From a virus (taxonomy: Duplodnaviria > Heunggongvirae > Uroviricota > Caudoviricetes): DNA of 6,703 nt. The DNA lies in IMG/VR virus record IMGVR_UViG_2534682252_000011, one strand, 5' to 3'. Every line of letters begins with the position of its first letter. The first letter of the stretch is position 1. Under the pieces are notes generated by a model. The model saw only the letters and a program-made list of their open reading frames with translations, made no database searches and was not told the origin of the DNA. Positions 1 to 6,703 of this stretch are shown in pieces. Position numbers and translations under genes: made by a program.

Positions 1-159
1 TGATTATGGCATTCAGGCTCTGCTAAAAATGCCAGATAACATTCCGGCCTCCCCTGATTCAGGTTATAAATGACACAATATCTTGACAACACCCGTCACT
101 GTCTGTCAGAAAATATACCGCCAGGCATAAGTATCATGTGAAATCCAACTATCCTTCTG

Positions 160-202
160 AGCCAGCACCTCTCCACCGAAAGTCAGTGCTGGCTGTTTTT
201 TT
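160..202 (+). terminator. Putative intrinsic terminator: 8-9 bp stem (161-168 gccagcac / 186-193 gtgctggc), 17-nt loop, followed by gttttttt
   Basis: Perfect inverted repeat read directly from the sequence, followed by a run of 7 T (196-202). It lies in the flank I do not recognise as lambda. The loop is large for a canonical terminator. Confidence 0.4.
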
Positions 203-429
203 CCTTAATAAAGCATCTGTAACTGGTTGTTGTTCTGCGGGTTCTGTTCTTCGTTGACATGAGGTTGCCCCGTATTCAGTGTCGCTGATTTGTATTGTCT
301 GAAGTTGTTTTTACGTTAAGTTGATGCAGATCAATTAATACGATACCTGCGTCATAATTAATTATTTGACGTGGTTTGATGGCGTAGATGCACGTTGTGA
401 CATGTAGATGATAATTATTATCATTTTGC

Positions 430-436
430 GGGTCCT
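430..436. other. cosQ: cosQ-like element (gggtcct) about 24-30 bp upstream of the cosN nick
   Basis: Position relative to the genome right end (459) matches where I recall lambda cosQ to lie. The exact cosQ boundaries are from memory. Confidence 0.4.
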
Positions 437-459
437 TTCCGGCGATCCGACAGGTTACG

Positions 460-471
460 GGGCGGCGACCT
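460..471. other. cosN: cosN: 12-nt cohesive-end sequence gggcggcgacct; right genome end ...cgatccgacaggttacg ends at 459
   Basis: Exact match to the canonical lambda cohesive end GGGCGGCGACCT, preceded by the canonical right-end sequence. Nu1 starts about 190 bp downstream, as in lambda. Confidence 0.85.
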
Positions 472-504
472 CGCGGTTTTTCACTATTTATGAAAATTTT
501 CCGG

Positions 505-625
505 TTTAAGGCGTTTCCGTTCTTCTTCGCCGTAACCTAATGTTTTTATTTAAAACACCCCCTGAAAAGAAAGGAAACGACAGGTGCTGAAAACGGGCTT
601 TTTGGCCTCTGTCGTTTCCTTTCTC
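505..625. promoter_or_regulatory. cosB: cosB: terminase small-subunit binding region with R3 (cgtttcc 512-518), an A/T-rich tract at the expected IHF site I1 (536-558), R2 (ggaaacg 573-579, inverted) and R1 (cgtttcc 613-619)
   Basis: Three copies of the cgtttcc / ggaaacg core in the R3-I1-R2-R1 order and orientation known for lambda, between cosN and the Nu1 start. I could not identify a clean IHF consensus by eye. Confidence 0.65.
568..624. repeat. 16-bp perfect inverted repeat (568-583 / 609-624) with a 25-bp spacer; the arms correspond to R2 and R1
   Basis: 568-583 agaaaggaaacgacag is the exact reverse complement of 609-624 ctgtcgtttcctttct. Confidence 0.8.
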
Positions 626-648
626 TGTTTTTGTCCGTGGAATGAACA

Positions 649-1194
649 ATGGAAGTCAACAAAAAGCAGCTGGCTGACATTTTCGGCGCGAGTATCCGTA
701 CCATTCAGAACTGGCAGGAGCAGGGAATGCCCGTTCTGCGGGGTGGTGGCAAGGGTAATGAGGTACTTTATGACTCTGCCGCCGCCATAAAATGGTATGC
801 CGAAAGGGATGCTGAAATTGAGAACGAAAAGCTGCGCCGGGAAGTTGAAGAACTGAGGCAGGACAGCGAGACAGATCTCCAGCCAGGGACTATTGAGTAC
901 GAACGCCATCGACTTACGCGTGCGCAGGCCGACGCACAGGAACTGAAGAATGCCAGAGACTCAGCTGAAGTGGTGGAAACCGCATTCTGTACTTTCGTGC
1001 TGTCGCGGATCGCAGGTGAAATTGCCAGTATTCTCGACGGGATCCCCCTGTCGGTGCAGCGGCGTTTTCCGGAACTGGAAAACCGACATGTTGATTTCCT
1101 GAAACGGGATATCATCAAAGCCATGAACAAAGCAGCCGCGCTGGATGAACTGATACCGGGGTTGCTGAGTGAATATATCGAACAGTCAGGTTAA
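649..1194 (+). CDS. Nu1: Terminase small subunit gpNu1 (181 aa), intact
   Basis: 181-aa ORF beginning MEVNKKQLADIFGASIRTIQNWQEQGMPV, an N-terminal helix-turn-helix, with the LRGGGKGNEV segment. Near-identical to lambda gpNu1 as recalled. Sits immediately downstream of cosB and overlaps the A start by 26 nt. Confidence 0.95.
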   Translation: MEVNKKQLADIFGASIRTIQNWQEQGMPVLRGGGKGNEVLYDSAAAIKWYAERDAEIENEKLRREVEELRQDSETDLQPGTIEYERHRLTRAQADAQELKNARDSAEVVETAFCTFVLSRIAGEIASILDGIPLSVQRRFPELENRHVDFLKRDIIKAMNKAAALDELIPGLLSEYIEQSG

Positions 1195-2896
1195 CAGGCT
1201 GCGGCATTTTGTCCGCGCCGGGCTTCGCTCACTGTTCAGGCCGGAGCCACAGACCGCCGTTGAATGGGCGGATGCCAGTTACTATCTCCCGAAAGAATCC
1301 GCATACCAGGAAGGGCGCTGGGAAACACTGCCCTTTCAGCGGGCCATCATGAATGCGATGGGCAGTGACTACATCCGCGAGGTGAATGTGGTGAAGTCTG
1401 CCCGTGTTGGTTATTCCAAAATGCTGCTGGGTGTTTATGCCTACTTCATAGAGCATAAGCAGCGCAACACCCTTATCTGGTTGCCGACGGATGGTGATGC
1501 CGAGAACTTTATGAAAACCCACGTTGAGCCGACTATTCGTGATATTCCGTCGCTGCTGGCGCTGGCCCCGTGGTATGGCAAAAAGCACCGGGATAACACG
1601 CTCACCATGAAGCGTTTCACCAATGGGCGTGGCTTCTGGTGCCTGGGCGGTAAAGCGGCAAAAAACTACCGTGAAAAGTCAGTGGATGTGGCGGGTTATG
1701 ATGAACTTGCTGCCTTTGATGAGGATATTGAACAGGAAGGCTCTCCGACGTTCCTGGGCGATAAGCGTATTGAAGGCTCGGTCTGGCCAAAGTCCATCCG
1801 TGGCTCCACGCCCAAAGTGAGAGGCACCTGCCAGATTGAGCGTGCAGCCAGTGAATCCCCGCATTTTATGCGTTTTCATGTTGCCTGCCCGCACTGCGGG
1901 GAGGAGCAGTACCTTAAATTTGGCGACAAAGAGACGCCGTTTGGCCTCAAATGGACGCCGGATGATCCCTCCAGCGTGTTTTATCTCTGCGAGCATAATG
2001 CCTGCGTCATCCGTCAGCAGGAGCTGGACTTTACTGATGCCCGTTATATCTGCGAAAAGACCGGGATCTGGACCCGTGATGGCATTCTCTGGTTTTCGTC
2101 ATCCGGTGAAGAGATTGAACCGCCTGACAGTGTGACCTTTCACATCTGGACGGCGTACAGCCCGTTCACCACCTGGGTTCAGATTGTCAAAGACTGGATG
2201 AAGACGAAAGGGGATACGGGAAAACGTAAAACCTTCGTGAACACCACGCTCGGTGAGACATGGGAAGCGAAGATCGGCGAACGTCCGGATGCTGAAGTGA
2301 TGGCAGAGCGGAAAGAGCATTATTCAGCGTCCGTTCCTGACCGTGTGGCTTACCTGACCGCCGGTATCGACTCCCAGCTGGATCGCTACGAAATGCGCGT
2401 ATGGGGATGGGGGCCGGGTGAGGAAAGCTGGCTGATTGATCGGCAGATTATTATGGGCCGCCACGACGATGAACAGACGCTGCTGCGTGTGGATGAGGCC
2501 ATCAATAAAACCTATACCCGCCGGAATGGTGCAGAAATGTCGGTATCCCGTATCTGCTGGGATACTGGCGGGATTGACCCGACTATTGTGTATGAACGCT
2601 CGAAAAAGCATGGGCTGTTCCGGGTGATCCCCATTAAAGGGGCATCCGTCTACGGAAAGCCGGTGGCCAGCATGCCACGTAAGCGAAACAAAAACGGGGT
2701 TTACCTTACCGAAATCGGTACGGATACCGCGAAAGAGCAGATTTATAACCGCTTCACACTGACGCCGGAAGGGGATGAACCGCTTCCCGGTGCCGTTCAC
2801 TTCCCGAATAACCCGGATATTTTTGATCTGACCGAAGCGCAGCAACTGACTGCTGAAGAGCAGGTCGAAAAATGGGTGGATGGCAGGAAAAAATAA
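1169..2896 (+). CDS. A: Terminase large subunit gpA, reading frame ends prematurely (575 codons, where lambda gpA has 641 as I recall)
   Basis: GTG start at 1169 giving MNISNSQVNRLRHFVRAGL...; contains VVKSARVGYSK. Roughly 99% identical to recalled lambda gpA until ...EKWVDGRKK, then TAA at 2894-2896. Confidence 0.9.
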   Translation: MNISNSQVNRLRHFVRAGLRSLFRPEPQTAVEWADASYYLPKESAYQEGRWETLPFQRAIMNAMGSDYIREVNVVKSARVGYSKMLLGVYAYFIEHKQRNTLIWLPTDGDAENFMKTHVEPTIRDIPSLLALAPWYGKKHRDNTLTMKRFTNGRGFWCLGGKAAKNYREKSVDVAGYDELAAFDEDIEQEGSPTFLGDKRIEGSVWPKSIRGSTPKVRGTCQIERAASESPHFMRFHVACPHCGEEQYLKFGDKETPFGLKWTPDDPSSVFYLCEHNACVIRQQELDFTDARYICEKTGIWTRDGILWFSSSGEEIEPPDSVTFHIWTAYSPFTTWVQIVKDWMKTKGDTGKRKTFVNTTLGETWEAKIGERPDAEVMAERKEHYSASVPDRVAYLTAGIDSQLDRYEMRVWGWGPGEESWLIDRQIIMGRHDDEQTLLRVDEAINKTYTRRNGAEMSVSRICWDTGGIDPTIVYERSKKHGLFRVIPIKGASVYGKPVASMPRKRNKNGVYLTEIGTDTAKEQIYNRFTLTPEGDEPLPGAVHFPNNPDIFDLTEAQQLTAEEQVEKWVDGRKK

Positions 2897-3095
2897 CTGT
2901 GGGACAGCAAAAAGACGACGCAATGAGGCGCTCGACTGCTTCGTTTATGCGCTGGCGGCGCTGCGCATCAGTATTTCCCGCTGGCAGCTGGATCTCAGTG
3001 CACTGCTGGCGAGCCTGCAGGAAGAGGATGGTGCAGCAACCAACAAGAAAACACTGGCAGAATACGCCCGTGCCTTATCCGGAGAGGATGAATGA
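2897..3095 (+). pseudogene. A: Displaced 3' end of A: LWDSKK still in the A frame (2897-2914), then [59 protein letters not shown] in the +1 frame, ending in the ATGA overlap with W
   Basis: Frame-0 ORF 2880..3095 encodes the expected gpA C-terminus and ends exactly at the W start (atg 3092-3094 / tga 3093-3095). Recovering the ancestral protein needs both readthrough of TAA 2894-2896 and a +1 shift near 2915. Confidence 0.7.
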
Positions 3096-4900
3096 CGCGA
3101 CAGGAAGAACTTGCCGCTGCCCGTGCGGCACTGCATGTACCTGATGTACAGGAAAACGGGTGGCAACGGTTACAGAAAGACGGACGGCGAGTGGAGTTTA
3201 CGACCACTTCCGTGTCTGACCTGAAAAAATACATTGCTGAGCTGGAAGTGCAGACCGGCATGACACAGCGACGCAGGGACCTGCAGGATTTTATGTATGA
3301 AAATCGTCCACCATTCCCACCCTTCGTGGGGCCGGACGGCATGACATCGCTGCGTGAATATGCCGGTTATCACGGCGGTGGCAGCGGATTTGGTGGGCAG
3401 TTGCGGGCGTGGAACCCACCGGGTGAAAGTGTGGATGCAGCCCTGCTGCCCAACTTTACCCGTGGCAATGCCCGCGCAGACGATCTGGTACGCAATAACG
3501 GCTATGCCGCCAACGCCATCCAGCTGCATCAGGATCATATCGTCGGGTCTTTTTTCCGGCTCAGTCATCGCCCAAGCTGGCGCTATCTGGGCATCGGGGA
3601 GGAAGAAGCCCGTGCCTTTTCCCGCGAGGTTGAAGCGGCATGGAAAGAGTTTGCCGAAGATGACTGTTGCTGCATTGACGTTGAGCGAAAACGCACGTTT
3701 ACCATGATGATTCGGGAAGGTGTGGCCATGCACGCCTTTAACGGTGAACTGTTCGTTCAGGCCACCTGGGATACCCGTCCCTCGCGACTGTTCCGGACAC
3801 AGTTCCGGATGGTCAGCCCGAAGCGCATCAGCAACCCGAACAATACCAGCGACAGCCGGAACTGCCGTGCCGGTGTGCAGATTAATGACAGCGGTGCGGC
3901 GCTGGGATATTACGTCAGCGAGGACGGGTATCCTGGCTGGATGCCGCAGAAATGGACATGGATACCCCGCGAGTTACCCGGCGGGCGCGCTTCGTTCATT
4001 CACGTCTTTGAACCCGTGGAGGACGGGCAGACCCGCGGTGCAAATGTGTTTTACAGCGTGATGGAGCAGATGAAGATGCTCGACACGCTGCAGAACACGC
4101 AGCTGCAGAGCGCCATTGTGAAGGCGATGTATGCCGCCACCATTGAGAGTGAGCTGGATACGCAGTCAGCGATGGATTTTATTCTGGGCGCGAACAGTCA
4201 GGAGCAGCGGGAAAGGCTGACCGGCTGGATTGGTGAAATTGCCGCGTATTACGCCGCAGCACCGGTCCGTCTGGGAGGCGCAAGAGTGCCGCACCTGATG
4301 CCGGGGGACTCACTGAACCTGCAGACGGCTCAGGACACGGATAACGGCTACTCCGTGTTTGAGCAGTCACTGCTGCGGTATATCGCTGCCGGGCTGGGTG
4401 TCTCGTATGAGCAGCTTTCCCGGAATTACGCCCAGATGAGCTACTCCACGGCACGGGCCAGTGCGAACGAGTCGTGGGCGTACTTTATGGGGCGGCGAAA
4501 ATTCGTCGCATCCCGTCAGGCGAGCCAGATGTTTCTGTGCTGGCTGGAAGAGGCCATCGTTCGCCGCGTGGTGACGTTACCTTCAAAAGCGCGCTTCAGC
4601 TTTCAGGAAGCCCGCAGTGCCTGGGGGAACTGCGACTGGATAGGCTCCGGTCGTATGGCCATCGATGGTCTGAAAGAAGTTCAGGAAGCGGTGATGCTGA
4701 TAGAAGCCGGACTGAGCACCTACGAGAAAGAGTGCGCGAAACGCGGTGACGACTATCAGGAAATTTTTGCCCAGCAGGTCCGTGAAACGATGGAGCGCCG
4801 CGCAGCTGGTCTTAAACCGCCCGCCTGGGCGGCTGCGGCATTTGAATCCGGGCTGCGACAATCAACAGAGGAGGAGAAGAGTGACAGCAGAGCTGCGTAA
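3092..4900 (+). CDS. B: Fused reading frame: head-tail joining protein gpW N-terminus (about 62 aa, no stop) continuous with portal protein gpB; an intact portal could also start at the internal ATG 3293
   Basis: 602-aa ORF starts [15 protein letters not shown]... (gpW), has the SD ggagagg at 3081-3087, and continues without a stop into [23 protein letters not shown]...[10 protein letters not shown] (gpB). The lambda-position W stop tga (3298-3300) and B start atg (3297-3299) are both out of frame here. In-frame ATG at 3293 with agga at 3285-3288 would give a 535-aa portal. Confidence 0.85.
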
Positions 4901-6202
4901 TCTCCCGCATATTGCCAGCATGGCTTTTAATGAGCCGCTGATGCTTGAACCCGCCTATGCGCGGGTTTTCTTTTGTGCGCTTGCAGGCCAGCTTGGGATC
5001 AGCCGCCTGACGGATGCAGTATCCGGCGACAGCCTGACTGCCGGAGAGGCACCCGCGGCGCTGGCGTTATCCGGTGATGATGACGGACCACGACAGGCCC
5101 GGAGTTATCAGGTCATGAACGGCATCGCCGTGCTGCCGGTGTCCGGTACGCTGGTCAGCCGGACGCGGGCGCTGCAGCCGTATTCGGGAATGACCGGTTA
5201 CAACGGCATTATCGCCCGTCTGCAACAGGCTGCCAGCGATCCGATGGTGGACGGCATTCTGCTCGATATGGACACACCGGGCGGGATGGTGGCGGGAGCA
5301 TTTGACTGTGCTGACATCATCGCCCCGTGTGCGAGACATAAAAACCGGTATGGGCGCTGGCCAACGACATGAACTGCAGTGCAGGTCAGCTGCTTGCCAG
5401 CGCCGCCTCCCGGCGTCTGGTCACGCAGACCGCCCGGACAGGCTCCATCGGCGTCATGATGGCTCACAGTAATTACGGTGCTGCCCTGGAGAAACAGGGC
5501 GTGGAAATCACGCTGATTTACAGCGGCAGCCATAAGGTGGATGGCAACCCCTACAGCCATCTACCGGGTGATGTCCGGGAAACACTGCAGTCCCGGATGG
5601 ATGCAACCCGCCGGATGTTTGCGCAGAAGGTGTCGGCATATACCGGCCTGTCCGTGCAGGCTGTGCTGGATACCGAGGCTGCAGTGTACAGCGGTCAGGA
5701 GGCCATTGATGCCGGACTGGCTGATGAACTTGTCAACAGCACCGATGCGATCACCGTTATGCGTGATGCACTGGATGCACGTAAATCCCGTCTCTCAGGA
5801 GGGCGAATGACCAAAGAGACTCAATCAACAACTGTTTCAGCCACTGCTTCGCAGGCTGACGTTACTGGCGTGGTGCCAGCGACGGAGGGCGAAAACGCCA
5901 GCGCGGCGCAGCCGGACGTGAACGCGCAGATCACCGCTGCGGTTGCGGCAGAAAACAGCCGCATTATGGGGATCCTCAACTGTGAGGAGGCTCACGGACG
6001 CGAAGAACAGGCCCGCGTGCTGGCAGAAACCCCCGGTATGACCGTGGAAACGGCCCGCCGCATTCTGGCCGCAGCACCACAGAGTGCACAGGCGCGCAGT
6101 GATACTGCGCTGGATCGTCTGATGCAGGGGGCACCGGCACCGCTGGCTGCAGGTAACCCGGCATCTGATGCCGTTAACGATTTGCTGAACACACCAGTGT
6201 AA
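4881..6202 (+). pseudogene. C: Capsid assembly protease gpC (S49/ClpP-like), split by a net +2 frameshift at about 5323-5344 into ORF pieces 4881..5372 and 5369..6202
   Basis: GTG start 4881 with strong SD gaggagga (4869-4876) and a 20-nt overlap with the B stop, as in lambda. Frame 0 reads ...GAFDCADIIAPCARHKNRYGRWPTT then stops; the gpC continuation PVWALANDMNCSAGQLLASAASRR... is in frame 2. The ORF-track start at 4746 is inside B and is not the real start. Confidence 0.8.
5597..6202 (+). CDS. Nu3: Scaffolding protein gpNu3 (201 aa), nested in-frame in the 3' part of C, intact
   Basis: Internal ATG at 5597 (MDATRRMFAQKVSAYTGL...) sharing the C stop at 6200-6202. Length and position match lambda Nu3. 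It lies downstream of the C frameshift, so it is unaffected. Confidence 0.75.
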   Translation: MDATRRMFAQKVSAYTGLSVQAVLDTEAAVYSGQEAIDAGLADELVNSTDAITVMRDALDARKSRLSGGRMTKETQSTTVSATASQADVTGVVPATEGENASAAQPDVNAQITAAVAAENSRIMGILNCEEAHGREEQARVLAETPGMTVETARRILAAAPQSAQARSDTALDRLMQGAPAPLAAGNPASDAVNDLLNTPV

Positions 6203-6211
6203 GGGATGTTT

Positions 6212-6544
6212 ATGACGAGCAAAGAAACCTTTACCCATTACCAGCCGCTGGGCAACAGTGACCCGGCTCATACCGCAACCGCGCCCGGCGGATTGAGTGC
6301 GAAAGCGCCTGCAATGACCCCGCTGATGCTGGACACCTCCAGCCGTAAGCTGGTTGCGTGGGATGGCACCACCGACGGTGCTGCCGTTGGCATTCTTGCG
6401 GTTGCTGCTGACCAGACCAGCACCACGCTGACGTTCTACAAGTCCGGCACGTTCCGTTATGAGGATGTGCTCTGGCCGGAGGCTGCCAGCGACGAGACGA
6501 AAAAACGGACCGCGTTTGCCGGAACGGCAATCAGCATCGTTTAA
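6212..6544 (+). CDS. D: Head decoration protein gpD (110 aa), intact
   Basis: [27 protein letters not shown]...AISIV, near-identical to recalled lambda gpD. aaggga SD at 6201-6206; starts 9 nt after the C stop, as in lambda. The ORF-track start at 6206 (MFM...) is probably not used. Confidence 0.95.
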
Positions 6545-6561
6545 CCTGACCCTTCATCACT

Positions 6562-6587
6562 AAAGGCCGCCTGTGCGGCTTTTTTTA
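6562..6587 (+). terminator. D-E intergenic hairpin (stem 6566-6570 gccgc / 6575-6579 gcggc, loop ctgt) followed by a run of 7 T; putative attenuator or RNA-stability element
   Basis: Inverted repeat plus T-run read directly from the sequence. Its function is not known to me, and full termination here would be odd because E is needed in amounts similar to D. Confidence 0.3.
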
Positions 6588-6599
6588 CGGGATTTTTTT

Positions 6600-6703
6600 A
6601 TGTCGATGTACACAACCGCCCAACTGCTGGCGGCAAATGAGCAGAAATTTAAGTTTGATCCGCTGTTTCTGCGTCTCTTTTTCCGTGAGAGCTATCCCTT
6701 CAC
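6600..6703 (+). CDS. E: Major capsid protein gpE, 5' partial (first 35 codons; runs off the window end)
   Basis: ATG at 6600 giving MSMYTTAQLLAANEQKFKFDPLFLRLFFRESYPF, matching the lambda gpE N-terminus as recalled. Confidence 0.9.
   Translation, partial: MSMYTTAQLLAANEQKFKFDPLFLRLFFRESYPF

Follow-up and report, generated by a model that had tools for sequence, protein, structure and literature searches.

A W-portal fusion reading frame in a short draft contig of Escherichia coli O157:H7 PA7 and its probable origin as a consensus error

The window, i.e., the whole stretch of 6,703 nucleotides that was analysed, carries the left-hand part of a head module of the lambda type, in which Nu1 (649-1194) is followed in order by A, W, B, C and D (6212-6544), and then by the first part of E. 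Near-identical DNA and the same gene order place it in the head module Nu1-A-W-B-C-D-E of the O157:H7 prophage Sp8. The window corresponds to an entire contig (Table 1), which is listed for two samples and is assumed here to represent the same assembly under two records. A single ATG-initiated open reading frame (ORF) running from the W start through the portal gene B, as described in the first-pass annotation, is present according to the ORF list, its translation and the Pfam domains. Its N-terminus, as far as the first 15 residues, is that of W, of which codons 1-61 are joined in frame to B, and the remaining ~520 codons correspond to a complete lambda-family portal. Gene calls on record for the contig leave the region 3096-4126 empty and comprise only a 257-aa portal fragment (4127-4900).

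Table 1. Coordinates of the features discussed in the text (positions of the window).
Feature	Position	Strand	Description
Window = whole contig AMTQ01000039.1	1..6703	.	base-for-base identity; draft GCA_000302735.1, E. coli PA7
Contig left end	1..476	+	identical (100%) to another O157 prophage, e.g., CDC#03-98 120918-121337
Lesion cluster 1, terminase gene A	2893..2915	+	A7-T-A -> A6-T-AA (AT->TA at 2894-5) plus +A at 2915
602-codon ORF	3092..4900	+	W codons 1-61 (residues 16-26 scrambled into 12), 17-residue out-of-frame linker, B from residue 11
Lesion cluster 2, inside W	3138..3170	+	+T at 3138, 3147 and 3170; net +3
Lesion cluster 3, W/B junction	3275..3326	+	GGGG -> GGG (-G at 3275/6), +1 base at 3304/5, +G at 3326; net +1
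Lesion cluster 4, prohead protease gene C	5323..5340	+	+C at 5323 (CCC->CCCC), +A at 5340 (AAAA->AAAAA); net +2

The two domains expected from such an ORF, gpW (PF02831, residues 1-62) and Phage_portal_2 (PF05136, residues 101-469), are both detected by Pfam. The portal domain is complete (profile positions 2-354 of 354, 324 bits), and the portal part of the ORF shares 98-99% identity with the 533-aa portals of E. coli. The gpW domain is incomplete: it matches profile positions 1-60 of 66, residues 62-68 are replaced, no in-frame stop occurs, and its score amounts to 65.7 bits vs 126.7 bits for the intact W of Sp8. The native portal start is lacking, with no start codon in an ATGA overlap and no trace of the Sp8 N-terminus MKMSTIPTLL.

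A base-by-base alignment to lambda, Sp8 and two other copies bears out the three single-base indels that had been proposed to lie behind the fusion. The GGGG run reads GGG at 3276-3278, one extra base occurs at 3304/3305 and an extra G occurs at 3326; because these changes net +1, B is placed in the frame of W. The second of them had been given as an extra t at 3304, which stands as far as the single extra base is concerned and reads as T against lambda, whereas against Sp8, the true closest relative, the base is C (+C at 3305). The lambda-position stop of W (TGA, 3298-3300) lies out of the W frame, and the frame opened by the lambda-position start of B (ATG, 3297) closes after 15 codons, as had been claimed for both, and the native first 10 residues of the portal are replaced. 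The altered N-terminus predicted for a start at ATG 3293 was reproduced over its 12 residues.

The claim that W only lacks its last seven residues holds in part. Residues 62-68 are indeed replaced, but W cannot be considered as otherwise intact because the three +T insertions of cluster 2 also scramble residues 16-26, eleven residues which give way to twelve unrelated ones. The W frame is kept across this cluster since the three insertions net +3, and two of them are one repeated change, ATGAC to ATGTAC, within 9 bp. Both damaged parts of W matter according to the lambda virion structure: the scrambled segment runs from the last part of helix 1 into the β-hairpin, and the lost residues 62-68 belong to the C-arm. 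In lambda, 12 copies of gpW dock beneath the portal after packaging via this C-arm, which binds gpB by β-sheet augmentation (PMC10721106).

Among 5426 complete E. coli genomes, the closest relatives of the window are O157:H7 strains, including Sakai (Sp8) and EDL933, with 99.8% identity over 225-6703. The Sp8 prophage of Sakai (NC_002695.2, 1629797-1636268) is here the same as the corresponding prophage in the re-sequenced EDL933 genome (CP008957.1, 1715235-1721706). Over 225-6703, the window departs from Sp8 by nine single-base indels, an adjacent AT-to-TA swap and three substitutions, and by nothing else. Two of these substitutions (328 and 360) are those of the other prophage from which the left end stems, and over 361-6703, where the gene order is the same, the two sequences are identical save for the nine indels, the swap and one substitution. 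In Sp8 the genes A, W, B and C are intact (641, 68, 533 and 439 aa, respectively), with an ATGA overlap between W and B, whereas the window disrupts all four genes and carries another left flank (1-360). Lambda displays ~97.5% DNA identity over the module and the same layout. Its W and B genes, which naturally overlap at ATGA and lie in different frames, encode separate proteins; in contrast, the ORF of the window joins both, with a partly scrambled W and a truncated C-arm.

The nine indels and the swap, which occurs in an A run, represent ten small lesions with respect to Sp8, so that the three junction indels, the only ones noted at first, account for only three of the ten window-private lesions. 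In the terminase gene A, the swap creates a TAA stop after codon 575 and the A inserted at 2915 then shifts the frame (ORFs 1169-2896 and 2880-3095). The prohead protease/scaffold gene C (4881-6202) is split into ORFs of 163 aa (4881-5372) and 277 aa (5369-6202). The fusion is thus no isolated event, since seven further private lesions exist in A, W and C. Once all ten lesions are reverted, the window again encodes A of 641 aa, W of 68 aa (identical to that of Sp8), B of 533 aa with one residue different, and C of 439 aa. In addition, a private A-to-G change at 4284 converts a lysine of the portal to arginine (...GGARVPH...) and occurs in none of five reference copies; it may be either a further miscall or a true strain SNP.

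The left part of the contig would have a distinct origin. The switch from the other O157 prophage to the Sp8-type sequence takes place within a shared stretch of 116 bp (361-476), which holds cosN (460-471). Because not one of the 5426 complete E. coli genomes contains this hybrid left join, the left end of the contig is probably chimeric, joined via the shared cos stretch.

Both DNA and protein searches were performed for recurrence of the fusion. The W-B junction is carried by 3210 of the 5426 complete E. coli genomes, with a best identity of 98.5% (397 vs 401 nt); consequently, no genome shares even one W-B indel, and none of the six W-B indels was found in any of these 3210 genomes. Each of the three junction variants gave no exact match in IMG/VR, and the GGG variant gave none in the JGI metagenomes; as a positive control, the GGGG version matched at least 120 viral contigs. 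The check for recurrence of the variant in the lambda reference or other lambda-like copies accordingly found the junction lesions in no public copy searched. At the protein level, the 602-aa ORF was compared with 5.8 billion protein clusters, none of which combined gpW and portal domains (PF02831 and PF05136), the query coverage reaching at most 88% among 670 portal homologues. The W part, searched against 1.84 billion cluster representatives, yielded 24 gpW-like matches, all of 54-217 aa. A natural class of gpW-portal fusions recurring in independent genomes or phages was therefore not found by these DNA and protein searches. The exact 602-aa protein exists only as WP_248698537.1 / UPI0002E2703B, which derives from this assembly alone; an exact-match look-up of the protein on contigs returned none, the recorded gene calls skipping 3096-4126.

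A 575-aa A product in 11 contigs and a 277-aa C product in three raised the idea that the lesions recur in independent assemblies, which was rejected. The 575-aa A products of other assemblies are partial genes at contig ends, devoid of the stop, and do not reflect a shared lesion. As for the 277-aa C product, the copy of CP043011.1 results from different indels, and the copy from a Logan contig is a partial gene at a contig start.

The nature of the private changes differs from that of natural divergence. Between the window and intact natural copies of the module (lambda, an O157 TR01 prophage and an Stx1 phage), 275 substitutions and two indels are counted, vs three substituted bases and nine indels for the window-private changes (Fisher p = 3e-13). 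Similarly, viral contigs yielded 70 distinct natural versions of the W-B junction, which together show 582 substitutions with respect to Sp8 and hardly any indels, and a 68-codon W with the ATGA overlap is kept in 113 of 114 natural loci from viral contigs. The lesions of the window are biased towards insertions (8:1), and half of them occur in non-repeat contexts. They gather in four clusters of 18-52 bp, six of the nine gaps between lesions being of 60 bp or less (permutation p = 5e-6), and all lie within 2893-5340, the 2.4 kb upstream, which is single-copy, being free of lesions. Two or three prophages within one O157 genome share an almost identical module from ~2830 on. Short-read and hybrid assemblers collapse such near-identical repeat regions.

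The reading frame is preserved in one of the four clusters, which corresponds to the chance prediction, so that no sign of selection can be recognized; the idea of compensatory frameshifts maintained by selection was rejected on this basis. The idea that each indel represents a mixed column at a SNP between paralogues is only partly supported. Paralogue SNPs fall in two of the four clusters, at 3282 (cluster 3) and 5334 (cluster 4), both in the Stx1-phage copy, so that this mechanism explains only part of the lesions; the coincidence with the clusters is not significant (p about 0.1, an estimate), and none of the O157 paralogues examined showed a difference in cluster 2.

Taken together, the privacy of the lesions to one assembly, their dominance by indels, their clustering and their reversibility to the intact genes of a near-identical reference make it very likely that the W-portal ORF is a consensus error in a short, repeat-derived draft contig and not a real feature. 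The local assembly error, which the first-pass annotation had named as the alternative to its fusion, is the reading favoured by this evidence. The underlying DNA would be that of Sp8, the lambda-like prophage of essentially all O157:H7 genomes, in which W (68 aa) and B (533 aa) are separate genes that overlap by ATGA. In the contig, which comes from a 2012-era draft of E. coli O157:H7 PA7, the consensus past ~2830 would carry ten one-base miscalls, three of which (-G, +1 and +G), located at the boundary of W and B, would by chance leave one open frame.

As a technical cause for these miscalls, poor read tails or a low effective coverage in the collapsed repeat are likely. Every event amounts to a plus-or-minus-one call in a single nucleotide flow, with six changes of homopolymer length and five non-homopolymer insertions. 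In all five of the latter, the inserted base is one that the TACG flow order places between the two adjacent bases, a coincidence which has a chance of about 1 in 8 and is weak alone. The lesions would fit the plus-or-minus-one flow calls of pyrosequencing, a resemblance likewise weak by itself. For PA3, PA5 and PA9, sister strains sequenced at the same centre, Illumina/Velvet or Illumina+454/Celera was used; all three figure in the table of the 26-genome announcement, which does not include PA7 (PMC3593324).

Real bases would make the module a dead remnant of a prophage, its terminase being cut at codon 575 and its protease frameshifted. The Sp8 head module could in that case be decaying in PA7, the W-B ORF being a functionless by-product of pseudogenisation. 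Prophages of O157:H7 are often defective and frameshifted head genes occur elsewhere, e.g., nohD in TR01, and the damage to A, W, B and C together is what a dead module would show. However, decay would require ten indel-type events and at most one substitution within 2.4 kb otherwise identical to Sakai and EDL933, against the 275 substitutions to two indels of natural divergence. The spectrum of the lesions, with its excess of insertions, its half in non-repeat contexts, its tight clusters and the ATGAC to ATGTAC change made twice within 9 bp, is equally at odds with decay, as is the occurrence of the junction lesions in none of the 3210 complete genomes with the junction. Genuine decay is for these reasons regarded as improbable.

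Still less probable, to the point of being very doubtful, is that the ten lesions are real and arose in a localised burst of +1/-1 frameshifts creating a translated gpW-portal chimera or, more weakly, an assembling covalent fusion. For a viable phage using either a functional covalent gpW-gpB adaptor-portal fusion or a portal that restarts at ATG 3293 or ATG 3341, there is hardly any likelihood. The 602 codons are open and both Pfam domains remain detectable, but on the same contig the terminase is stopped at codon 575 and the protease is frameshifted, so that neither prohead formation nor packaging would be possible. Moreover, the W part is scrambled where helix 1 passes into the β-hairpin, and has lost the last seven residues of the C-arm by which gpW contacts gpB through β-sheet augmentation (PMC10721106); no protein combining gpW and portal was found, the coverage not exceeding 88% for the 670 portal homologues and the 24 gpW-like representatives being limited to 54-217 aa. 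With a dead module and a W damaged in two structurally important parts, a functional adaptor-portal fusion is unsupported under any reading. The real connector-portal fusion envisaged at the outset is not upheld, as its lesions are private to one draft contig, are clustered and also wreck A and C.

The biological importance of the ORF is accordingly small, and a new connector-portal architecture is without supporting evidence. Its interest resides in curation, since the 602-aa chimera circulates publicly as a "phage portal protein" under the above-mentioned accessions. Short repeat-derived contigs in older drafts of O157:H7 can yield plausible fusion ORFs, and scans for gene fusions in prophage modules should first test whether the lesions are private to a single draft contig and dominated by indels.

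The reading of the ORF as a consensus error has its counterparts in other draft or noisy assemblies, where many singleton fusions of this portal with its neighbours are found, most of them on single contigs. They include fusions of the portal with the S49 protease (912-966 aa, one cluster having six members) and of the terminase with the portal (730-861 aa), several of them from Logan. The number of such singletons, in which draft and Logan assemblies fuse the portal to C or A, shows that artefactual portal fusions are common. The present case differs from them in that the partner is W instead of C or A, and in that the errors are biased towards insertions and not towards deletions. One of the forms, the portal-C fusion of 966 aa, recurs and might point to a hotspot in the 20-nt stretch where B and C overlap.

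Some further observations were made on related copies. In CP043011.1 (2554950-2575783), a 5.48-Mb E. coli chromosome recorded as complete, the same module occurs with its own deletions of 1-3 bases, which leave an A of 525 aa and a portal in three pieces; none of the indels of the window is shared, and the sequence looks like an unpolished long-read assembly. In the complete genome of TR01 (NZ_CP033605.1), the Nu1-like gene nohD (1102-1646 of the TR01 locus) is annotated as "frameshifted". At 893, the window has one T more than that record; because it agrees with lambda at this position, the lesion lies in the nohD of TR01. Finally, five aligned contigs from other draft E. coli assemblies break off at most 2 bases apart in the A7 run of gene A (2887-2895), and 11 contigs carry the 575-aa A product. 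These ends coincide with the first lesion of the window, and could correspond either to a repeat boundary in the assembly graph or to an IS insertion in a sub-lineage.
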